A DNA stretch of 64,000 nucleotides, taken from contig OZ024742.1 of assembly GCA_964016885.1 (NCBI GenBank), forward strand, positions 82,956,001 to 83,020,000, written 5' to 3'. Under the pieces are notes generated by a model. The model did no database searches, had not been told where the DNA came from, and saw nothing but the letters and a program-made list of their open reading frames with translations. The position numbers and the translations under genes are program-made. The stretch is from Eledone cirrhosa (taxonomy: Eukaryota). The first letter of the stretch is position 1. Each line of letters opens with the position of its first letter. Below are positions 6,172 to 45,257 of the stretch, in pieces.

Positions 6172-6445
<274 letters not shown>

Positions 6446-10382: not shown

Positions 10383-11134
10383 TAAGGAGCACACTAACAC
10401 CAGGGCCTCGTCTTTCCGGAAACACATAGCCAAATGCGGAAACAAGGACGGAAGGCCCATTGCCACAATTCTCGCGACAGAAAGAAACGTCGGCACATTA
10501 CGTATCAAGGAAGCACTTTGGATCAAACGCCTAGGGCCACAATTAAACAACCGATCCGAGAGAAGCGAAATAAGGTGCTTGGTTTAATTTAACAAACGAG
10601 ACACACACAGTAACATTCACCAAACAGGCAGAGAATACTATGGACTGACAGCTAGCGCCACCCCACTCCCACAATTGAAAGAACTACTTCGGCCGCTGAC
10701 CTCTGCTTGACCGACCCCATTTTACGCGCACGCGCATCTGCTGAATACCTCAGATATTCAAAACCACGAACAGCGGAGGACACGCTTCGCACCTTTCCGA
10801 CACACAACCTTTACCCCACGCCCCGAAAAAAAACCCCAGTTGATGGATGTGAATCCGAAATATATAGGGACAATTAAATCTCTCCCAAAGTAACTCTATC
10901 CTGTTGTTATTTTTATTTTTATTTTTATCCTTTACGGTCTTTCCTTCATTCCTCTACACGCTCCAGTCTTATACATGCCACGCATCTCAACGTACACCCA
11001 CTTACATGTCTCTCTCCACCAGTGGATCTTATTACCCGGAGATTTACCCATCTGCATTTTCGAGGCTTCTAAACGACTTAAAGTAATTTACCTTATTATT
11101 CCACAATGCTTCAAGCAAACTTCAATACTCACTT
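10383..11134 (+). mobile_element. Penelope-like element 3' end, 5'-truncated second copy
   Basis: Colinear and highly similar to 47-958; (TA)n on both sides. Confidence 0.85.
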
Positions 11135-16028: not shown

Positions 16029-17118
16029 CTAAGGCGGGTAAAATTCCCGAGATCCATGGACGAGTTCTCTCCAGCGGTCTCTGCCCCTCATTATCGCTGC
16101 CATGTCCTGCGTCTCCAACAGACCAGTGTCTGTCCTTAGGGCATCAACATACGTTAACCTTGGTCTTCCTCTTCTAGTGTGTCCATGTAGTGCCTCCCAA
16201 AGAAGCACTGAGTGCAATGTCAGATCTGGATGTCGGTGAGCATGTCCAGCTAACCTCAGTCTCCTCTGTGTCACTTTTGAGCTGACTTTTGGGATACACC
16301 CATACAGCTCTGAGTTTTTCATCCTCAGTGTATATTGATTAATGTTCAGAGCCATCCTCAGCATTCTCGTGTAGCACCCATCCACCATCTGAGTGAGTTT
16401 CTTGGTCAGTGTCCAATCTCAGACCCATACAGCAGCACAGACTCCACTACAGCAATGAAGAGGCGGATTTTCAGGTCTCTACGAAGGTCCGACTTCCACA
16501 CCGATCTCATGCTGTGGCACGCCGCCCAGGCCTTGCTCTTCCTCTCAACCACATCATCTTCCGTATTCCCAATCTCTGCTCCCAAATACAGGAAGTCCTC
16601 AACCAATTCTAGCGGCTTCCCGCCTACATTAGTGATCCCCTCTGGCTTCTCAACATTCTCTACCAGATATTTTGTTTTAGTCTCATTCATTCTCATCCCC
16701 ACACTCATCGACACAGTCTCAACCTCCCGCATCAAATCCTCTGCCTCCTTCACTGTATTTGTCACCAAAACTATGTCGTCGGCAAATTCAGCATCCGATA
16801 CCTTTTTCGCCCTAACTCTCCTGCTCTGAGTCGGTGCTACAGTAAAGCCAGAGTCCTGGTGTTTCTCCAGTGCAAGGCGCATACAATAGTCCACTACGAT
16901 GATAAAAAGGTAGGGAGCCAATGTATCTCCCTGGAGCACTCCAGCCAGTATCTCAAAGAACTCTTTCATCCTATCAGGTGTAATGACTTGGGTTTTGGTG
17001 TTGGTGTAGAGCAGTGATATCAGGTCCACTATCTTCTTGGGGATTCCATAAGCCTGTAAGATCTTCATCAGGCAGTAACGGTCCACAGAATCAAAGGCCT
17101 TCCTAAAGTCAATGAAAA
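16029..17118 (-). mobile_element. 5'-truncated RTE LINE (RT domain to 3' end)
   Basis: GVLQGDTLAPYLFIIVVDY, EFADDI, FLYLG, ESVLLYGSE; frameshift near 16410; same family as 42069-45322. Confidence 0.95.
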
Positions 17119-18370
17119 CTGGGAGCTAACAAGACATTACGGAGAGCCTTCCATGTGACTCGGGAAACCCAAATGTAAAATCAAAGAGCAGTCTTTTAAA
17201 GCTGTTCCCAATAGAAATCCCATCAGCCATGGAGATGGAACCCTTTCACTTTCACTAACCCCCAGACGCTAAGTAAACATTTTGTCCGTTTATCAATCAT
17301 CAAAATGGCTATCTTAAGAGTTGATTTCATAAATATTCGTTACCTCTCGCTGTCCTTAAATCAGGGTCGCTAGCTGAACGTCATCAGGTCGCTAGATATG
17401 GATGAGACTACATCAGCGAGACCAATATTTCCAACACGCAAACAAACCCCCATTTTCGCCGACTATCAGATCTTCGCATTTATTAGTCCACCAGGAATGG
17501 TAGGTATGGTGGTAGTTTTAGGAAAGGGCGGGATATCGAGCGAGGGAAGGAAGAGCTTCCTTGACCCAGGCAGTACATTGATGGATTGGACGTGAGCATA
17601 TAGGGGACAGGGAGAGAGGGAGTTACAACAAAATCGAATAAAAATAAATTAACAAATAACAATATACAAAAATCAAAAAATGAAAATTCCCCAATAGGAG
17701 GAAAAGCCATCAGGGAACGACTCAGGTAGTCCACCAATTATAAACCACCCGACGCTTCACAGGAGAGCACCTTTCTCCTCCCTAAATCAGACAGCCTACG
17801 AGGAATGGTCAGAGTAGGCCCATTGATCGGGCCATCCATGCAACATTGCACTGAGTGGCAGCAATTCCCTCTTCACCCTCAGCTTCCTTTCCTAGTGAAG
17901 CTTGAAAAAGTTGATGAAGGATTATCCGAATGGAAAAGTGTCCTCTCTTCTGTTCTTTCAGCCTCATACACCACATAACCTCTTTTACTAGAGTCACCAG
18001 CCAGAGAACACTGCCTGCGCATCCCAGCCAAAATAAGGGGGTTGGGAGATCGTCATGATGAATCAGTCCAACCCACGATAAAATAAAAGGAGTTTGATAT
18101 AAAATCAACAAATGAGTAATGCACAGAGCCGTATGACCGAATTTCTGTGGCTCTAGCGTTTACCTCGGAACGGCACTGCCCTATTTATTCATGAATCTCG
18201 GATCAAACGTCCTCCTGAACAGATTGGTCCTTTCATAGGTTCCCGAACCTCCGCGAAGGCGACGTGGCACTTGCCCGTCATCTATTTATTGTTCTAAATT
18301 CCGAACATCTTTTCAGTATGTAAATTGAAATATGCAAATTATATACCTGTATATGTGTATCTATATATAA

Positions 18371-18656: not shown

Positions 18657-18700
<44 letters not shown>

Positions 18701-18731
18701 AGTGTAATTTTCTACACAAAACGAAGGTTAT

Positions 18732-18923
18732 AGAGAAAATTAAGGTTGGTAATGGCACATGGAATATATAAGAGACAGAATACTTTTTTGTGAAAAAACA
18801 TATAATTTTATAAGGTAAGGAAATAAATACCCTTTATTATTTCCTTACCTTATAAAATTATATGTTTTTTCACAAAAAAGTATTCTGTCTCTTATATATT
18901 CCATGTGCCATTACCAACCTCAA

Positions 18924-18931
<8 letters not shown>
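18732..18931. repeat. Near-perfect 200-bp palindrome
   Basis: Arms of ~95 bp around a short aatacccttta spacer. Confidence 0.9.
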
Positions 18932-21672: not shown

Positions 21673-22412
21673 TATAAACGGAAAAAATGAAACGAAATTT
21701 CATTTCTCACTCTTAGTACAGCTGTTACTTAAATATAAGTATGTATACGTACATACATATATGTATACAGACGTACAGTAGTATGTATATATATATACAT
21801 ACATGCACACATATATATATGTACGTATGGATTCACCGAACATTTATTATAATACTCGGTGTGTTTGTAAACAAACATCCCGAATTAAGCCGTACAGTGT
21901 CTAGCAACCATCGTTACTCATTTGTTCAACACTAACAAAGGAACGCTGTACTAGTTTCAAGCTTATTAGCTATCGTCAACAACGTATACCTTCCTGCCAG
22001 ATGGTTGAACGTCTGAAAGTATATACTTTCCTTATGCATATTAACGGCTGAGCAGCCTAATTTGCATATCGAGTGTGTTAATCGGCCGGAGTACCGAAAA
22101 CGATAAACGGAAAAATGAAACGAAATTTCATTTCTCACTCTTAGTACAGCTGTTACTTAAATATAAGTATGTATACGGACATACATATATGTATACAGAC
22201 GTACAGTAGTATGTATATATATATACATACATGCACACATACATATATGTACGTATGGATTCACCGAACATTTATTATAATGCTCGGTGTGTTTGTAAAC
22301 AAACATCCCGAATTAAACTGTACAGTGTCTAGCAACCATCGTTGCTCATTTGTTCAACACTGACAAAGGAACGGTGTACTAGTTTGAAGCTTATTAGCTA
22401 CCGTCAGCAACG
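21673..22412 (-). repeat. 428-bp tandem repeat (~1.7 units) with one hammerhead per unit
   Basis: Near-identical blocks at 21741 and 22169; (TA)n flanks. Confidence 0.9.
21943..21985 (-). ncRNA. Minimal type I hammerhead ribozyme (428-bp family)
   Basis: Reverse complement ACGTTG-TTGACGA-T-AGCT aata AGCT-T-GAAA-CTAG-TA-CAGCGT. The second copy (22371-22412) has CTGACGG and CAAA, so the consensus is CTGACGA...GAAA. Confidence 0.65.
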
Positions 22413-22428
22413 ATATGTATATATATGA

Positions 22429-22473
<45 letters not shown>

Positions 22474-22690
22474 GTTAAAGATGTACATCCATATATGTAT
22501 ACTGAAATACTAGTATGTATATGAATACACACACGTATACATATGTAGATGTACCAAGTTTTTTTCACTGGTCACTTTACTGTGAGTGGCCAGCTATTCT
22601 GTATGTAAACACACCGACAAACCGGTTTTTAGAGTCATACGGGTTTTTGAGGAAACACCTTTCCTCTATTCTCCAAAAAGCCAGACAAGG

Positions 22691-22735
22691 AATATTGAAC
22701 TAGTTTCGTTGTTGTTACAACTCATCAGCAATATT
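22691..22735 (-). ncRNA. Minimal type I hammerhead ribozyme (468-bp family, inverted arm)
   Basis: Exact reverse complement of the plus-strand HHR. Confidence 0.9.
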
Positions 22736-22841
22736 TACCTATCTTCCGGCCTCTCTAGAGAATCGTAAAAGCACATATCGTTATATGCTTTTTCTATGAA
22801 AATTAGTAGTACGATTCTCTAGAGAGGCCGGAAGATAGGTA

Positions 22842-22886
22842 AATATTGCTGATGAGTTGTAACAACAACGAAACTAGTTCAATATT
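22842..22886 (+). ncRNA. Minimal type I hammerhead ribozyme (468-bp family, unit 1)
   Basis: AATATTG-CTGATGA-GTTG taacaa CAAC-GAAA-CTAG-TT-CAATATT. Canonical core, 7-bp stem I, palindromic ACTAGT stem III; GUU^ after 22879. Confidence 0.92.
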
Positions 22887-23309
22887 CCTTGTCTGGCTTT
22901 CTGGAGAATAGAGGAAAGGTGTTTCTTCAAAAACCAGTATGACTCTAAAAACCGGTTTGTCTGTGTGTTTACATACAGAATAGCTGGCCACTCACAGTAA
23001 AGTGACCAGTGGAAAAAACTTGGTACATCTACATATGTATACGTGTGTGTATTCATATACATACTAGTATTTCAGTATACATATATGGATGTACATCTTT
23101 AACTTAATTGTTTAAGCGTCAGTCATACAAAAGTGAGTTACAAACGAAACGAAATTTAATTTCGTTTCGTTATTTGTTTTTATCGTCTCCGTTGAACCGG
23201 TACTTACTCACACTCTATGCAAGTTAGTCTGCCCACTACTAATTTTCATAGAAAAAGCATATAACGATATGTGCTTTTACGATTCTCTAGAGAGGCCGGA
23301 AGATAGGTA

Positions 23310-23354
23310 AATATTGCTGATGAGTTGTAACAACAACGAAACTAGTTCAATATT
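23310..23354 (+). ncRNA. Minimal type I hammerhead ribozyme (468-bp family, unit 2)
   Basis: Identical to 22842-22886. Confidence 0.92.
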
Positions 23355-23777
23355 CCTTGTCTGGCTTTCTGAAGAATAGAGGAAAGGTGTTTCCTCAAAA
23401 ACCAGTATGACTCTAAAAACCGGTTTGTCTGTGTGTTTACATACAGAATAGCTGGCCACTCACAGGAAAATGACCAGTGAAAAAAACTTGGTACATCTAC
23501 ATATGTATACGTGTGTGTATTCATATACATACTAGTATTTCAGTATACATATATGGATGTACATCTTTAACCTAATTGTTTAAGCGGCAGTCATACAAAA
23601 GTGAGTTACAAACGAAACGAAATTTAATTTCGTTTCGTTATTTGTTTTTATCGTCTCCGTTGAACCGGTACTTACTCACACTCTATGCAAGTTAGTCTGC
23701 CCACTACTGATTTTCATAGAAAAAGCATATAACGATATGTGCTTTTACGATTCTCTAGAGAGGCCGGAAGATAGGTA

Positions 23778-23822
23778 AATATTGCTGATGAGTTGTAACA
23801 ACAACGAAACTAGTTCAATATT
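23778..23822 (+). ncRNA. Minimal type I hammerhead ribozyme (468-bp family, unit 3)
   Basis: Identical to 22842-22886. Confidence 0.92.
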
Positions 23823-24245
23823 CCTTGTCTGGCTTTCTGAAGAATAGAGGAAAGGTGTTTCCTCAAAAACCAGTATGACTCTAAAAACCGGTTTGTCTGT
23901 GTGTTTACATACATAATAGCTGGCCACTCACAGTAAAGTGACCAGTGAAAAAAACTTGGTACATCTACATATGTATACGTGTGTGTATTCATATACATAC
24001 TAGTATTTCAGTATACATATATGGATGTACATCTTTAACTTAATTGTTTAAGCGTCAGTCATACAAAAGTGAGTTACAAACGAAACGAAATTTAATTTCG
24101 TTTCGTTATTTGTTTTTATCGTCTCCGTTGAACCGGTACTTACTCACACTCTATGCAAGTTAGTCTGCCCACTACTAATTTTCATAGAAAAAGCATATAA
24201 CGATATGTGCTTTTACGATTCTCTAGAGAGGCCGGAAGATAGGTA

Positions 24246-24290
24246 AATATTGCTGATGAGTTGTAACAACAACGAAACTAGTTCAATATT
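24246..24290 (+). ncRNA. Minimal type I hammerhead ribozyme (468-bp family, unit 4)
   Basis: Identical to 22842-22886. Confidence 0.92.
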
Positions 24291-24713
24291 CCTTGTCTGG
24301 CTTTCTGGAGAATAGAGGAAAGGTGTTTCCTCAAAAACCAGTATGACTCTAAAAACCGGTTTGTCTGTGTGTTTACATACAGAATAGCTGGCCACTCACA
24401 GTAAAGTGACCAGTGAAAAAAACTTGGTACATCTACATATGTATACGTGTGTGTATTCATATACATACTAGTATTTCAGTATACATATATGGATGTACAT
24501 CTTTAACTTAATTGTTTAAGCGGCAGTCATACAAAAGTCAGTTACAAACGAAACGAAATTTAATTTCGTTTCGTTATTTGTTTTTATCGTCTCCGTTGAA
24601 CCGGTACTTACTCACACTCTATGCAAGTTAGTCTGCCCACTACTAATTTTCATAGAAAAAGCATATAACGATATGTGCTTTTACGATTCTCTAGAGAGGC
24701 CGGAAGATAGGTA

Positions 24714-24758
24714 AATATTGCTGATGAGTTGTAACAACAACGAAACTAGTTCAATATT
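24714..24758 (+). ncRNA. Minimal type I hammerhead ribozyme (468-bp family, unit 5)
   Basis: Identical to 22842-22886. Confidence 0.92.
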
Positions 24759-25052
24759 CCTTGTCTGGCTTTCTGGAGAATAGAGGAAAGGTGTTTCCTC
24801 AAAAACCAGTATGACTCTAAAAACCGGTTTGTCTGTGTGTTTACATACAGAATAGCTGGCCACTCACAGTAAAGGGACCAGTGAAAAAAACTTGGTACAT
24901 CTACATATGTATACGTGTGTGTATTCATATACATACTAGTATTTCAGTATACATATATGGATGTACATCTTTAACTTAATTGTTTAAGCGTCAGTCATAC
25001 AAAAGTCAGTTACAAACGAAACGAAATTTAATTTCGTTTCGTTATTTGTTTT

Positions 25053-25106
<54 letters not shown>

Positions 25107-25138
25107 TAACGAGAATGTATATATATATATATATATGA

Positions 25139-25220
<82 letters not shown>

Positions 25221-26330
25221 GAACATTCATATATATATACATTCTCACCCTCAATTACTCCGTATACACGCGTTTAACTCTGTAGTAATAGATCCCACTT
25301 AATTAAAATGTGCTTTATTTTTTAAAGATTAATTGTATACTTCTACCTCTAGTTTAAGGTAATTTACGTGTTATCTTAGCTACCAGTAACAAAAAAAAAA
25401 AGAAAAAATAGGTTCTCTAGTTTACAGATACACTTAATTTGTTAATGGTTTACTTGGCTACTCTTTGATCGGTAGAACTTACTGCTGGTCGTGATGCAAA
25501 TATGGCTCTGTGGTCTGAAAATGGCGGAGACATGCCTGGTGGCAGGCATACATACACACACACCCTCATATATCTTCGATCGATATAATTCTACCTCCTC
25601 TTAACAATTCTATCATAAGTATAACGCGGATGAACGCATGGTGACACACATACATAAACATACGGATGCACATACCGATGCGCACATAGCCACACACATC
25701 CATAGGCACACATACACAGGTACTTTCCCATTCATACAAATACTCCTTAAATATATATATAAAAATGTATAAAAATCCATGTATCTGTATCTGTATATGA
25801 GAAATGCAATCAAATCATTCTAAAACCCTTTGCAAGATCCCATAAGAAACACTTTATATCCTTATATGGACAAACTACGCCCCAATGATATGGACTAACC
25901 GAGATGATAACAGTATGGAACTAGCTGTTGAAATGATAAGAGCTGAGCCGTCGGGTCCCGATTCTTTATAATATAGGCATCCTCTACTACCTCAGTTATC
26001 AAGGACTCTATTGAGTAATAGTCTAACTAGTTTTAAACTGGTTCCATCTTAATATATGTATATATATATATATATGTGTGTGTGCATCTGTGCATGTGTG
26101 TGTGTGCGCGCGTCCCAGGTTCAATCGGGGTAACCACAGTAAGTAAGGTACTTAATACATTAGTAGTATGTAAACATCAAGTTTCATATAGAGAATGGCT
26201 TCTAAATTTCTAGTCTTGTAGAAGCCAATTCTATATCAAATTTGTTATACGTATATATACACAGTTTATACACATACTTTGACCCATACCCGTATCTCCG
26301 TCTCTATCTCTCTCCCCCTCTCTCTCTCTT

Positions 26331-35284: not shown

Positions 35285-35434
35285 ATGAACACTTCATTCT
35301 TGCTCTTATGTTGGCATGCGAACAGAACTGCAGATAATAATGTTTCTGGGTATCACCCTTCATCATTACAGCTCACTGTTCACCTGCCAAACTGTCATAG
35401 CTAGTGAACATATGAGCAAGAAAGGAGTGTTCAT
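35285..35434. repeat. Short inverted-repeat element enclosing a degenerate minus-strand hammerhead (35328-35371)
   Basis: 28-bp imperfect arms. Reverse complement CTGTA-ATGATGA-A-GGGT gat ACCC-A-GAAA-cattatta-TC-TGCAG. Confidence 0.5.
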
Positions 35435-38237: not shown

Positions 38238-38880
38238 ATGAAGTTAATATGCCCACGGGTACTAGGTACCACTGGAAATATATAGGTTGTCTATGATACA
38301 GGGTTGTTCAATGGTATTAATTTGACATACCAGAACTATAATATTGAGATAAGCAGAACAAGCAAAATTCAAACAACTTTTTTAAAATAAATTAAAAAAC
38401 ATAATTTAAAGATTTACCTACTCCAGTTGCTTTTACCGATCGGTTTCCCTTCACAAAACATTAGAAATCCATGGGGACCTCCAATGGAAAAGTCAAGTTC
38501 ATCAGAAAGCATTTTCCTTTCCTAGGACTAAAAGTCCCAGGAACGGCTAAATATATTGCCATCTGCCAGCTAGCACAGGACCGAATGAGGCCAAAATTTG
38601 ACCTGTACATGAACCAGTCCGTAGCAAAAGCGGAAGTAAACATAGACGTGTTGTTTACTCCACCACTAAAAATAGCAGCCAAAGAGAACAACAGATTTGT
38701 TCTCTACATAACGGAGAATATTAAATGAAGTTAATATGCCCACGGGTACTAGGTAACCCTGGAAATATATAGGTTGTCTATGATACAGGGTTGTTCAATG
38801 GTATTAATTTGACATACCAGAACTATAATATTGAGATAAGCAGAACAAGCAAAATTCAATACAATTTTTTAAATTAAATT
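38238..38880 (-). repeat. 487-bp-period partial tandem (~1.3 units) with a central hammerhead
   Basis: Direct repeat of ~150 bp at 38239 and 38726. Confidence 0.85.
38428..38511 (-). ncRNA. Type I hammerhead ribozyme with an expanded stem II (487-bp family)
   Basis: Reverse complement TGCTTT-CTGATGA-aCTT...TCCAT..ATGGA...AAGg-GAAA-CCGATCGG-TA-AAAGCA; palindromic ACCGATCGGT stem III, GUA^ site. Confidence 0.8.
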
Positions 38881-40842
38881 AATACCATTAAACATTCCAT
38901 ATTTAGGTATATGTGTTCTCACAAGTAGATGCACGTACTTCACCATAGTATTGTGTCCCTAAACGAAGTTTATTTCCTTTAATAGATACAATGTAATTTG
39001 TCTGCAGTATGTATACAATGAGATATGATTGTAATATATATTTTTTTTCTATTACAGAATGAGTTGATATTACATTCGGGGTGCACGTAAAAACACGCAA
39101 GAACAACATCAATAATATCTGTGAGGATATATTTAAATTAGCTTTCTTTTAATCTAGGCATTTGAGGTACCTTGGGATCAACCTATATTATAAATTAGGC
39201 ACCTCCTTCAAAAAGCTCTGTCTAAATTTTAGTTTTAAATATAACGTGAGATATAACAAATATCGTATTCTATGACCGCGTATCGTTTAAATAAAGTACG
39301 TAAATTGTTTTTGAAAATCCTCATTATTTTTTTTCAAGAATTAGTGGAATCAGTTTCTTAAGCCAGTCGGATGATGTAAACATTTGTGACTTCGTACATT
39401 TAATAATTACCTAGATTATAGTAATTATAAACTTTCTATGATGTGTCCATTTTCGAGTTCACTTGTGATGTCTACCTGTGGATATTCTAGATTTTTGTGA
39501 GTTATTAATTATTTTCGTTCTAAAAATATACGCTGTTTTACCTGTATTCAATATTGTGCTTTTCAACCATCTTATTGAACATGAAGCTTTGTATGAAGTT
39601 TGTTTCAATTACGTGTTTCCTCTCATTTATTCGAAACCCAATATAATATATTAAGTTGATATATTTTTTGTTTCTTTAGTATTATCAATTAGTATCGTCA
39701 ATCGCGACATTTTATTATGCGCTTCAATAATTTTATAACAATATCAACAGAAATATAAATTCAATAGACATATACGTATATCTAAGCGTGTATTTTGAAT
39801 ATATAGACACACTAAAACTGGTGATTGTTTATATGACCAATTGCAGAAAAGGCAATGCACAAATTGTATTTATATCATAAACCATAAATGATGAAGCACT
39901 CAATCGGGATTTAATGCCTGAGTGCTTTGGATCGAAACTAAATTCTACAATATATTTAATCAACTTCTCTTCTACGCTTTATGTCTGCAACCTTTATGTC
40001 TGCAAATATGTTTTATTGCTAAGGTGATCTGTATTAGCTTTCATCTTCTATTTGCATTACTTGAACAATCTGACTGATTTAAAGTAATTATTTCGTGATT
40101 GTTTTATTTAGTTTTGCTAGTCCTTATATTTCTTTTTTTTTTCTACTCGTGGTTTATGTTGCAGAAACTTGTTCTACAATTGCTTATATTTTACAAGCAA
40201 TTGTTTATTAAGCTAAGCTTGGTGTACTGCATATTTTTGTTGTTTGATTTTGTATAAAGTAAGGGAAATTGTGTTTAGTTGTTTTCCCTCCTCGTTATTG
40301 GAATATTTCTTGAGAATAACGTAAAGAGAAACACTACCACTTCAGTTAAAGATGGACGAAGACAAAGAATACAATTATTTAAGGAATATTATCATCATTT
40401 AGTTATTCTTAATTTTTCTACTTTGCTATACTTCTTGATGATATCATGAAAGGATATATGAATTGTGTCCAATCAAGTTATAGTTAAGAATAAGAAACAA
40501 TATGTCACCCTAATAGAAGAGGCAAATACAACATGTTCCTAACCTCGAAACTTTAAAATACATTACAAAAGGTAGCAGCAACTGAAGTTTTAAATCAACA
40601 TATAACTTCACTGCTCACAAGTGTTTTTTAAGCTTCATATCATGTCTCCCTATTTTATCTGATGAGAACGCAGATATCATCCCATGATGATATTTCTTTT
40701 TGAAATGCGCATAATAAAATATTTGGAACTCTTTTAACCATCTTTTGATCTTATATTATTTATACTCCAGTCCTACAAACCGTAGAGTGCCACTTAGCCG
40801 ATATTTGCATTGCTTTATTGTGCTACAATAAAACTCACCTCC

Positions 40843-42041: not shown

Positions 42042-42309
42042 TATATGTATATGCATACATATATATATAACCCATAAATGGGGCCCTAACAGGTACTACT
42101 ACTCCGGGCCAGAGCAGACCTGGATGTACTTTAATGTCATACCCAGGACATTAAACTACATCCAGTGGCAACGCTCCAGTTGGGGAGTTCAGGAGCTGTG
42201 AGGGATGTGGAGTTACCCCTTAGTTGTCATAACTCCCAGGTCTGCTCTGGCCCGGAGTAGTAGTACCTGTTAGGGCCCAATTTATGGGTTAAATAACTAC
42301 CTTAGTCGA

Positions 42310-43188
42310 GTGGCGCCGGTAAGCTATTGTCAGCCATTGAAAAAAAATATGGAGACTCTATCTAACAGCACTAGGGTTAGAGCCCCTAATTACACTGTCA
42401 AGGAGAAGTCTGGTCGTTATGACTCTGCTGGCTTAGAGCCACAGGGGGTGGGGTCAGTTGATGATGGATCAGCTGTCTCTGAAACAAATATAAAGAATGC
42501 AGTTTTGTCCTACAGAAGAGCCATCAAAATGGGCAATTTGAATGTGAGGACTATTAGGACGCTGGAGAAGAGAGAGGATTTGGGACATCTGTTCGAGGAG
42601 AGTGGTATACAGATACTTGCGATCCATGAACACAGGATCCTACACGATCAGCCCGTGAGGGGTGTGATGATTGGGAAGATGAGCCAGCTCATCACCACAT
42701 CGGCAGTGAAGAACATGACCAATGCTGCTGTGGGAGGAGTGGGGTTTGTTTTCAGCACAAAAACCAGTCTATTGGTGAGGGAAATAATACCTGTCTCCCC
42801 GCGAGTGTTGGGGGTAACCTTCAATGGAAACCCAAGACTGACAGTCATCTCAGCCTATAGTCCAACCGACGGAGACAGTGACGTGAGTGCGGAAGAGTTC
42901 CATGACGAGGTGTGTAGAGCTGTCAACACCACACAAGCACACAACATCCTGCTTGTTTTGGGGGACTTCAATGCACATCTGAGTAAGGAGGGCAGTGAAG
43001 ATCCTTGCTGGTACTTCCATAACAACACCAACCGAAATGGAAGACTACTGAGAAACACCCAGCTGGAGGCGAACTTGATAGCAACCAACCTAAGGTTTAG
43101 GAAGAATCCGGGGAAGATGTGGACCTACATCTCAGATATGCACCTGTCCAAGTCCCAGATTGATTTCATTCTGGTGAGGAAAATGTAG
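42310..43188 (+). pseudogene. Apurinic-like endonuclease domain of the RTE ORF
   Basis: GNLNVRT, ILAIHEHR, GGVGF, ISAYSPT, LGDFNAH, NRNG, SQIDFIL. Confidence 0.92.
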
Positions 43189-43440
43189 CGGAATAGTATT
43201 CTGAGCACAGAACCATACAACTATTTCAGTACACTGGAGAGTGCCCACCGGCTTGTTATGAGTGAGGTCCGGGTGAGCTTAAGACAGAGCAAGGCTCAGC
43301 CCTGGAGAGTAATATATGACTGGGGAGCTTTCAAGGAAGATGATAAGCTACACGAGAGGTTCACAGTGGAAATGAGGAACAGGTTCAGTGCTCTGTGTGG
43401 GGAGACAGAGGAGAGAGAGATTGGATAGACTGAGGAGAGT

Positions 43441-45257
43441 GTGACGACGAGGTACGGGCACTTCACCAATACGGTGGCGGAAGCAAGTGAGACCCTGGTG
43501 CCGAGGAGAAAGAACAAAAGGAAGCACGTCAGCTCTGCAGACCCAAAAGTGTGTGCAGCCAGAGAACACCTGAAAGCTGCCAAGGACCAATTCTATGCTG
43601 ATCCTACGGAGGAGAGGATGGAGACTGTGGAGGTGATGAGGGAAGAATTCTGTACCGCTTACACTGAGGCCAGACAGGAGGTACTGATAGAGAAGATCAG
43701 AAATGTGGAGAGAGCGGTTGACAGGTCTGGATGTAAGGAGAGCTGGATGATCATCAACCAGATCACTGGGAGGAATAGAAGGTGTTCGAGTCAGATATCG
43801 GGACCAGGACACGAGGATAGGAAGAGGAAATGGCTAGACCATTTTAGGACCCTACTAGGAGAGCCGCCCTCCACAGCCCAGAGCACTGGGGAGATCAGGC
43901 AGCTGTTGGAAGAACAGGATATTGAGACAGAACCCTTCACCAGAGAGGAGCTTCAGAGAGCCAAGAAGACGATAAAGGAGGGCAAGGCGAGAGAAGAGGG
44001 AGTGGAATCAGAGGTGATGAAGAGGTGTGATTTTGATGATATCATCCTGAGATTCTGTAACCAGGCACTGGAGAAAGAAGTTGCCCCGAATCAGTGGAGG
44101 ATCAGTAACATCGTCCCAGTGCCAAAGAAGGGAGATCTCGCTAACACCAACAACTACAGGGGGATCTCACTGACGTCACTTGTGGCAAAGACCCTCAACA
44201 GGATGATTCTTAACAGGATCCAGCCTGAGATGGAGAAGACGCTCAGGGACAACCATAACGGTTTCAGAGAGGGAAGATCAACCGCCAGTCACATCCTGAT
44301 GCTGAGGAGGATATTAGAGGGAGCTAGAGCAAAGTGCCTTCCTGCTGTCATGGTTTTCATTGACTTTAGGAAGACCTTTGATTCTGTGGACCGTCACTGC
44401 CTGTTGAAGATCTTACAGGCTTATGGAATCCCCAAGAAGATAGTGGACCTGATATCACTGCTCTACACCAACACCAAAGCCCGAGTCGTTATACCTGATG
44501 GGAAGACAAAGTTATTTGAGATACTGGCTGGAGTGATCAAGGGAGATACATTGGCTCCCTACATTTTTATCATCGTAGTGGACTATTGTATGCGCCTTGC
44601 ACTGGAGAAACACGAGGACTCTGGTTTTACTGTAGCACCGGCTCAGGGCAGGAGAGTTAAGGCGAAAAAGATATCGGATGCTGAATTTGCCGACGACATA
44701 GTTTTGGTGACAAATACAGTGACTGAGGCAAGGGATTTGATGCAGGAGGTTGAGACTGTGTCGATGAGTGTGGGGCTGAGAATGAATGAGACTAAAACAA
44801 AATATCTGGTAGAGAATGTTGAGAATCCAGAGGGGATTACTAATGTAGGCAGGAAACCGGTAGAATTGGTGATGACTTCCTGTATTTGGGAGCAAAGATT
44901 GGGAATACAGAAGATGATGTGGTTGAGAGGAAGTGCAAAGCCTGGACAGCGTGCCACAGCTTGAGATCGGTGTGGAAGTCGGACCTTCCTAATGACCTGA
45001 AAATCCGCCTCTTCATTGTTGTAGTGGAGTCTGTGCCACTGTACGGGTCTGAGACTTGGACAGTGACCAAGAAACTCACTCAGATGATGGATGGGTGCTA
45101 CACGAGAATGCTGAGGATGGCTCTGAACATTAACCAGTATGCACTGAGGAGGAAAATCTCAAAGCTGTGTGGGAGCCTCCCAAAAGTCAGCTCAAAAGTG
45201 ACACAGAGGACACTGGGATTAGCTGGACATCCTCACCGACATCCAGAGTTGACATAG
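43441..45257 (+). pseudogene. Reverse transcriptase domain of the RTE ORF (frameshifted)
   Basis: PVPKKGDL..NYRGISL, GFREGRST, FIDFRKTFDSV, GDTLAP, EFADDI, LYGSETW. Confidence 0.93.

Follow-up and report, generated by a model that had tools for sequence, protein, structure and literature searches.

A young hammerhead retrozyme family in Eledone cirrhosa whose two-armed insertions bear a Penelope-like signature

A 64,000-nucleotide stretch of the Eledone cirrhosa genome (assembly GCA_964016885.1, contig OZ024742.1, positions 82,956,001 to 83,020,000; hereafter the window, to whose own numbering coordinates refer unless another locus is named) contains a 468-bp tandem array of units that carry a hammerhead ribozyme (HHR) motif. 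Here we show that this repeat, which we call family A, is a real and young retrozyme family. We read the locus as a hammerhead retrozyme insertion made by the enzyme of a Penelope-like element (PLE), which would have used a single 468-nt RNA, probably a circle, as the template for synthesis from the two DNA ends at once, and we give this reading a probability of roughly 0.65. Searching the 3.0-Gb genome with the HHR of the unit shows that the locus is one insertion of a genome-wide family with 4,843 exact HHR copies, against 0 for a control pattern; this number is a lower bound, since approximately 44% of the sampled loci carry a variant HHR. A previous, sequence-only reading had taken the array for a retrozyme-like locus, which our results support as a prediction, but it had passed over the likeness of the anatomy to that of PLEs, the fixed position of both ends, the recent activity across the genome, a U6-like element, and a sister family at 21674-22412.

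Results

Six letter-identical copies of the 45-nt HHR motif are present, five on the plus strand (starting at 22842, 23310, 23778, 24246 and 24714, the first ending at 22886) and one on the minus strand (22691-22735). The five direct copies lie in a right arm (22810-25055, plus strand), for which Tandem Repeats Finder (TRF) reports a period of 468, 4.8 copies and 98% matches. The inverted copy lies in a left arm of 341 nt (22469-22809, minus strand), and the stretch 22469-22810 is 98-99% complementary to the direct copies. Numbering the unit from the first base 3' of the predicted cut (22880, 23348, and so on), the left arm has its outer 3' end at unit 229-230, which we call the short end, and an inner 5' truncation at unit 357; the right arm has its inner 5' truncation at unit 399 and its outer 3' end at unit 304, the long end. 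Read from the sequence, the arms meet head to head at 22810, one shared base at which unit 357 meets unit 399. Both outer ends run into (TA)n, delimited by TRF at 22413-22470 and 25053-25239. Excluding the array itself, the left target (22413-22468) also divides this insertion from one of the sister family, and the right target spans 25056-25239. As had been noted before, there is no real open reading frame (ORF): none of at least 100 amino acids occurs within 22470-24987, and the nearest one (24988-25302) consists mostly of the TA run. We also agree with the earlier cleavage position, the cuts in the right arm being predicted after 22879 (GUU^C), 23347, 23815, 24283 and 24751, and that in the left arm after 22698. 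Cut to cut, the right arm would thus hold four complete monomers of 468 nt, the first at 22880-23347. The monomer at 23348-23815 is highly self-paired, with a folding z of -8.35 and 0/100 shuffles folding as well.

The motif has the CUGANGA, GAAA and NUH core elements together with stems I and II, as a type I HHR should. To call it canonical, however, was too strong: its stem III is a stub of 1-2 bp with a palindromic loop, which is the minimal, newt-like type, and the cleavage triplet is GUU. The palindrome, ACUAGU (ACTAGT in DNA), is compatible with a double hammerhead, and this earlier idea holds as a prediction. When a natural two-HHR stretch is folded in silico, the crosswise register is favored, with stem I pairs at P ~0.76 and a 6-bp ACUAGU stem III at P ~0.48, compared to P ~0.01 for a single HHR in cis. 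The same crosswise arrangement of stem I and a 6-bp stem III is described as raising cleavage in axolotl dimers (PMC7229834). In a scan with Rfam models, Hammerhead_HH9 (RF02275) matched 4/4 of the copies scanned at 37.7-37.9 bits (E ~2e-7), short of its gathering score of 52, which lowers the case for membership of the RF02275 family only. No Rfam model reaches its gathering score anywhere in the window; sub-threshold matches to miRNA and sRNA models were dismissed as noise from hairpins or TA sequence.

Invariance of the HHR had been put forward from the six copies in the window. These are indeed identical, but by themselves constitute weak evidence, because the five direct units differ from each other at just 11 columns. 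A comparison over ~104 loci is more telling: core columns vary in at most 2 of them, stem II shows a compensatory T-A/A-T swap (59/45 loci) that probably goes back to a single change in the ancestor of a subfamily, and the cleavage triplet reads GUU in 66 loci and GUC in 39. The near-invariant core and the stem II swap indicate that the ribozyme is under selection. The most conserved part of the unit outside of the ribozyme is what we call the tail, the one-sided segment between the two fixed ends (unit 231-304; 24982-25055, plus strand), which embeds a 13-bp hairpin at unit 264-292 and varies by 1.1%, compared to 4.5% for unit 8-229.

To define the insertions of family A, two sets of loci (labelled L) were sampled. 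For the first set, 27 loci were drawn from the initial 100 matches to the HHR, and a further 7 from among the top similarity matches. The long-end set comprised 80 stretches from the first 100 matches of a long-end pattern, minus those already sampled and the last one. Except for the 7 similarity loci, all lie within the first 122 Mb of contig C1. The family consists of non-coding units that each carry an HHR, at least two in a row, dispersed over many loci. At these loci a structure of the long terminal repeat (LTR) type is absent; no separate search was made for a primer-binding site or a polypurine tract. Insertions are built of head-to-head arms with both 3' ends facing outward into (TA)n, in which a target-site duplication is unreadable. 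The inverted copy, treated before as an odd feature of this array, is the rule of the family. In the first set, 57/58 outer ends fall at unit 302-305 or 229-235, and 15/17 two-armed C1 loci have one long and one short end, the other two having two short ends and a broken end; among the similarity loci, 5/6 two-armed insertions pair a long with a short end, the sixth having two long ends. The insertion in the window obeys this rule, with unit 229 at the left and 304 at the right. An opposite arm adjoins the long end in 54 of the 80 stretches of the long-end set (two of the 54 being one duplicated locus); it ends at unit 225-235 in 48 and at 304 in none, the other cases being 3 that end elsewhere and 3 that run off the stretch. 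Of the remaining stretches 22 are apparently single, about 9 of which, inspected by eye, have an opposite arm reduced to a stub, 2 run off, and 2 have an anchor arm too short to map. Genome-wide, exact long-end/(TA)n junctions number 2,222, and short-end junctions 756 on the plus strand, the minus count being inflated by overlapping matches. Neither fixed end coincides with the ribozyme site, as they lie 229-235 and 304 nt past it. The two exceptions to the rule, L067 (long and long) and L059 (short and short), do count against a strict pairing of the ends.

An inverted, 5'-truncated copy, a tail at one end and a bias for (TA)n together form the anatomy published for PLEs (PMC8557442; PMC3846280), and as these insertions show all three, they bear a PLE signature. 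Furthermore, a purified PLE is described as cutting and extending both strands, and as starting at two internal sites that bound the tail (PMC11167929). We consider it very likely that PLE machinery moved the insertions of family A.

Next to the machinery, the nature of the template can be approached from the arms themselves. Over 39 loci, divergence within arms (0.0082) equals that between the two arms (0.0079; p = 0.66), with a between-loci median of 0.048. Ranked by distance among all sampled arms, the partner arm falls in the nearest 5% at 55/64 loci and always within the nearest 25%, and the HHR subtype agrees between arms in 49/50. Most of the 247 variants inside loci are singletons (208); units of the same arm share 23, and 16 recur across arms, roughly half of these last next to indels. 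A rare allele is fixed in every pass of both arms at 14/39 loci. At L042+43, 20 passes over both arms show zero differences, and there is no internal difference over 9.3 kb at this locus, over 3.7 kb at L132 or over 3.3 kb at L054; because these loci belong to different haplotypes, several lineages must have moved very recently. Both arms of an insertion are thus likely to have been copied from one RNA molecule.

Inner ends are scattered over the unit, and the cleavage site was read through 444 times, which precludes a linear, cleaved monomer as the main template. A hint of self-cleavage, indirect at best, lies in 19 stops within the 26 nt after the cleavage site (10.3 expected, P = 0.01), compared to 4 in the 26 nt before it. 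No excess of inner ends is found at the predicted transcription start (6 versus 9.8 expected). Circular monomers probably served as the template, as judged from these patterns in the DNA. A PLE reverse transcriptase (RT), which has no RNase H, would need strand displacement in order to pass around such a circle.

The most serious alternative, which we nevertheless deem unlikely, retains the PLE machinery but has it copy a linear multimer, transcribed through one of a few long homogeneous arrays and left uncleaved, with array length renewed by DNA duplication and circles as a by-product. The following observations speak for such a template, weigh against our own reading, or do both. Uncleaved RNA is described as the main substrate of the purified PLE, with the HHR dispensable (PMC11167929), and 8/9 Xenopus retrozyme dimers are given as lacking cleavage in vitro (10.64898/2026.07.22.740005). 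Long homogeneous arrays do exist, and DNA-level expansion, which is demonstrated in families A and B, can make kilobases of identical units; the family A arms of L056, L060, L072 and L076 have alleles repeated within one arm, and in the window array alleles are common to several units at columns 25, 240 and 256. Since such expansion occurs, the unit number cannot be a pure count of RT passes. A few variants are common to the first passes of both arms (L096, L139). The small excess of post-cleavage stops implies that some templates have a real 5' end, although this excess is modest, its bin width was picked after viewing the data, and RNA structure could explain it.

However, expansion of each arm after insertion predicts less divergence within arms than between them, contrary to the equality that is observed, and the rare alleles fixed over both arms demand frequent bottlenecks of a single unit. 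Likewise, the predicted start site shows no run-off. Genomic arms are mostly short (median 499 nt; 10/129 exceed three units), for which reason long linear templates should be scarce. Array length in the end-anchored set does not rise with age either (rho -0.14, p = 0.38, n = 44). A negative trend of length with age had appeared at first; it was discarded, because the long loci were partly hand-picked and the end-anchored set is without a trend.

Autonomous PLEs that encode RT and GIY-YIG domains are present in the same genome, in a partial survey in which 50 of 10,597 GIY-YIG candidates were inspected. They display the same pairing of long and short ends, with tails of ~65 nt (L181 family), 55 nt (L188) and 40 nt (L189). 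A near full-length copy at L181 (2809-5622, minus strand) has a 938-codon open frame with RT and GIY-YIG between two HHR-bearing repeats, whose HHRs near 6436 and 1457 have a U3-A8 core variant; family copies are 97% identical in protein. A second family (L184, L185, L188, L194) carries a minimal HHR with an AGTACT palindrome, and its insertion at L188 is two-armed with one long and one short end. The ACTAGT-type HHR was not found among the inspected PLE families, whose palindromes are ACCGGT (with the U3-A8 core) and AGTACT. Regarding a partner for family A, the leads are weak and point to different families. In alignments anchored at the ends, family A (p = 0.05) and family B (p = 0.001) show some likeness to the L181 family, noticed post hoc among 40 comparisons. 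L085 (308-4045), on the other hand, is chimeric: a family A arm with its long end at the left is followed by a 40-nt piece of family A, and then by a PLE ORF and 3' end of the L157/L187 family with a short end at the right, although a deletion between neighbors could also yield this structure. Alignments of five PLE terminal regions to the family A unit scored no better than shuffles. Two alignments of family B to PLE ends did score above shuffles, and were rejected as driven by TA-rich sequence.

It is improbable, in our view, that the units are terminal-repeat stumps of an undiscovered autonomous PLE, expanded later as a satellite and not moving by themselves. The sampled stretches do contain many autonomous PLEs reduced to short palindromic stumps, with this same two-end anatomy, 24/57 Xenopus retrozyme families are reported to match known elements, nearly all of them PLEs, at their terminal repeats (10.64898/2026.07.22.740005), and the partial nature of our PLE survey leaves room for such an element. 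Yet the arms continue across the unit junction into more units rather than into an ORF, and in a tblastn search of 17 PLE proteins against the family loci L085 was the sole direct join, with the PLE as the opposite arm. That the unit moves by itself is also suggested by the long identical arms on both sides of young loci, by the activity of several haplotypes, by the conserved block that resembles a promoter, and by the existence of a second, homologous family.

That the inverted arm arose by fold-back or self-priming, with one cDNA or an antisense template copying itself, is highly improbable. Such a process has been put forward for rotifer PLEs on account of palindromic junctions (PMC3846280), would also predict identical haplotypes in both arms, and would fit the junctions of L095 and L123, where overlaps of 25 and 37 nt fall inside the hairpin of the tail. 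However, each arm has a fixed outer end of its own, the unit phases of the two inner ends differ by 0-225 nt, and the lengths of the arms vary independently. Moreover, the center junctions are mostly non-palindromic, with microhomology of at least 2 nt in 24/44 direct joins (17% expected by chance) and inserted bases in 18 of the 62 that could be scored; this enrichment in microhomology is what two separately primed cDNAs would be expected to leave. An assembly artefact can practically be dismissed: palindromic tandem arrays are difficult to assemble and some very long arms may be mis-sized, but dozens of loci, each with locus-specific alleles, follow the same rule, and contigs from run X1, which may be the assembly sample and hence not independent, end loosely in (TA)n at unit 235 and 304. 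Runs X4-X6 (organisms B-D) gave 1-3 contigs each, at low depth.

Within each unit we found a candidate for an internal promoter of the U6 type. An octamer-containing 12-mer at unit 337-348 (23216-23227, plus strand, recurring every 468) is kept in 79/96 loci and in family B, and matches, at 12/12, 11/12 and 11/12 positions, an element that three unrelated U6 loci of the host have at -77 to -79; a like match was reached by 5/500 shuffled units. The copy in the window has one mismatch to the common form, and it is this common form that a host U6 gene has 78 nt upstream. A TATA-like box follows at unit 378-387 (23257-23266, plus strand), the host U6 TATA being located at -30, and transcription would start at approximately unit 410-415. 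Such a start would precede the cut by ~55 nt, so that the promoter would be part of every monomer. Host U6 terminators are T7-T10, and the longest sense T run in the unit is T5. Several points tell against promoter function: the 12-mer and TATA-like box are 43-44 nt apart in the unit versus 47-49 in U6, loci with the mismatch of the window still spread (10/97), and the 12-mer is absent from host U1 promoters (0/12 distinct upstream sequences). It is also absent from the six other distinct U6 upstream sequences listed, one an insertion-displaced cluster variant and five apparent retrocopies. The genome search gave no match for U2 genes. All in all, we put the chance that this U6-like promoter is functional at slightly above even. 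Regarding the host upstream regions themselves (L221-L223, L233-L252), those of U6 genes share the octamer-containing element at -78 and not a proximal element of recognisable form; those of U1 genes share another motif, near -60, and likewise carry a TATA-like box, at about -30.

Directly left of the array, at 21674-22412 on the minus strand, lies an insertion of the sister family B, with a 428-bp unit in 1.7 copies, a single arm and its long end in (TA)n at ~21674. The unit is homologous to that of family A along its full length (score 325; best of 100 shuffles 163), and the genome holds 4,370 intact exact HHRs of this family with the same ACTAGT palindrome. Both HHRs in the window copy (~21943-21985 and ~22371-22412) have core mutations. 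Since the palindrome is common to both families, mixed A/B pairing of stem III is conceivable, though their stems I differ. Family B insertions have the same two-end anatomy, with ends fixed at 216-219 and 274, ~55 nt apart. Two loci, L201 and L202-L203, are independent, recent ABAB duplications (420/422 bp) of old family B insertions, with units 3% apart. We rejected them as products of dimeric circles: the dimer at one locus is unrelated to that at the other, and 12 differences set the opposite arm apart, indicating later duplication at the DNA level. L204-L206 (G000:C1:51772395-51793780) is a family B array of 21 kb and 50 units, one end of which is organised as a higher-order repeat of four units; its structure is that of a satellite growing from a retrozyme insertion.

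Other features of the window include PLE endonuclease remnants (4-222 and 10384-10560), a palindrome with 95-nt arms (99% complementary) at 18697-18931, between TA and TC/TA runs, which is possibly a PLE-type stump, and a ~487-bp direct duplication at 38251-38900. RT/endonuclease fragments of the long interspersed nuclear element (LINE) type at 16409-17125 (minus) and 42274-44964 (plus) lie at least 5 kb from the array and are unrelated to it. A decayed copy of a third hammerhead-bearing repeat is located at ~35330-35375 (minus), intact in L161, L191 and L196. The segment 26114-26245 is a piece of a small repeat that, at L186, L189 and L190, has a hammerhead-like motif in its palindromic center.

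Discussion

The events that would lead to a family A insertion can be outlined as follows. Each unit would be transcribed from its own promoter of the small nuclear RNA (snRNA) type, starting ~55 nt before the ribozyme. Adjacent HHRs are predicted to pair through their palindromic ACUAGU and release a 468-nt monomer, which a host ligase would close into a circle; the monomeric circle would be stable, as it has no partner. A PLE RT/GIY-YIG protein acting in trans would then cut (TA)n, in keeping with the pattern seen in the sequence, and the two DNA ends would prime at the two fixed internal sites 70-75 nt apart, one each, as the outer ends suggest. Each cDNA would circle the template approximately 1 to 25 times before halting at a near-random place. 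The inner ends are joined head to head, often at microhomology, and at some loci the arms have been lengthened later by duplication of the DNA. A more specific version, tentative and with odds somewhat short of even, is twin-primed rolling-circle reverse transcription. Here, a dimeric PLE enzyme would hold a viroid-like circle at two sites flanking the hairpin, giving rise to palindromes of up to ~17 kb, and a U6-type promoter on the circle itself would allow each copy to restart the cycle.

Family A is a known kind of element; what stands out is its unusually clear footprints of mobilisation. The animal non-LTR retrozymes of Cervera & de la Peña (2020; PMC7229834), among which newt satellite 2, axolotl HHR_Amex1 and mussel repeats of 350-390 bp, likewise have a non-coding tandem unit with a type I HHR, a GC content below 50%, strong self-pairing, thousands of copies, co-occurring PLEs, and the weak, palindromic helix III of the type that acts as a dimer. 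Circles and cleavage were demonstrated for them, whereas for family A both are predicted from sequence. The unit of 468 bp exceeds the ~170-400 nt given there, but to call it longer than most described animal retrozymes, as was done before, is too simple, as it falls inside the 51-972 bp range given in 10.64898/2026.07.22.740005. Mobilisation by a PLE or a LINE is proposed in PMC7229834, in which we found no mention of two-armed insertions, fixed paired ends, or arms of a single haplotype. Li, Clavereau & Pollet (2026; 10.64898/2026.07.22.740005) describe animal retrozymes as non-autonomous PLE derivatives, and family A shares this PLE link. Their evidence is given as co-occurrence and homology to PLE terminal repeats (pLTR) in vertebrates, and they favor local amplification by unequal crossover. 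For family A such pLTR homology was not found in our comparisons; the link here is the anatomy of the insertions, and most of the array structure looks coeval with insertion.

Endonuclease-bearing PLEs (PMC8557442; PMC3846280; PAc, PMC11167929) are described with the same inverted, 5'-truncated copy, one-sided tail, (TA)n, two start sites and minimal HHR. Family A differs from them in having no ORF, a tail of 70-75 nt rather than the usual 30-40, and arms that are many units long. Furthermore, its pairing of long and short ends is near-strict, while the start site of PAc is presented as having no strand difference (PMC11167929). Non-autonomous PLEs of Chlamys such as MRC1 (PMC8557442) are also non-coding, multicopy in head-to-tail orientation and moved by PLEs; unlike family A, as described there they generally have 3' sequence in common with an autonomous family, and most lack canonical HHRs. 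An internal promoter of the snRNA type within a hammerhead repeat, as is our candidate, has a precedent in newt satellite 2 (Coats 1994, as cited in PMC2220036), although the latter is cited as an RNA polymerase II promoter, and the element in family A matches U6 rather than U1 promoters of the host. For a squid genome, 235 hammerhead matches were counted without analysis (PMC6962438). In a literature search that left most subscription papers outside its coverage, we found no description of family A or of two-armed, paired-end retrozyme insertions; the supplement of PMC7229834 (model figure S9) and those of the preprint may bear on this novelty.

The enzyme that moves retrozymes and the circle as its template are put forward as a hypothesis in PMC7229834, and the PLE hypothesis is repeated in PMC11722881 and PMC7761336; according to 10.64898/2026.07.22.740005 the 'precise mechanisms remain to be elucidated'. 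Likewise, the origin of the tandem and inverted structures of PLEs is named as a next task in PMC8557442. To both questions family A offers exact, testable coordinates for the two sites of priming, the conserved 70 nt that would serve for recognition, the cleavage site and the candidate promoter, along with very young copies and candidate PLE proteins in one genome. The sampled loci also show satellite arrays arising from retrozyme insertions. If our reading is true, copying of a circular RNA, long proposed for retrozymes, would be the route by which they spread, and if the twin-primed version of it holds, the same geometry would account for the inverted copy and one-sided tail of all Penelope elements.

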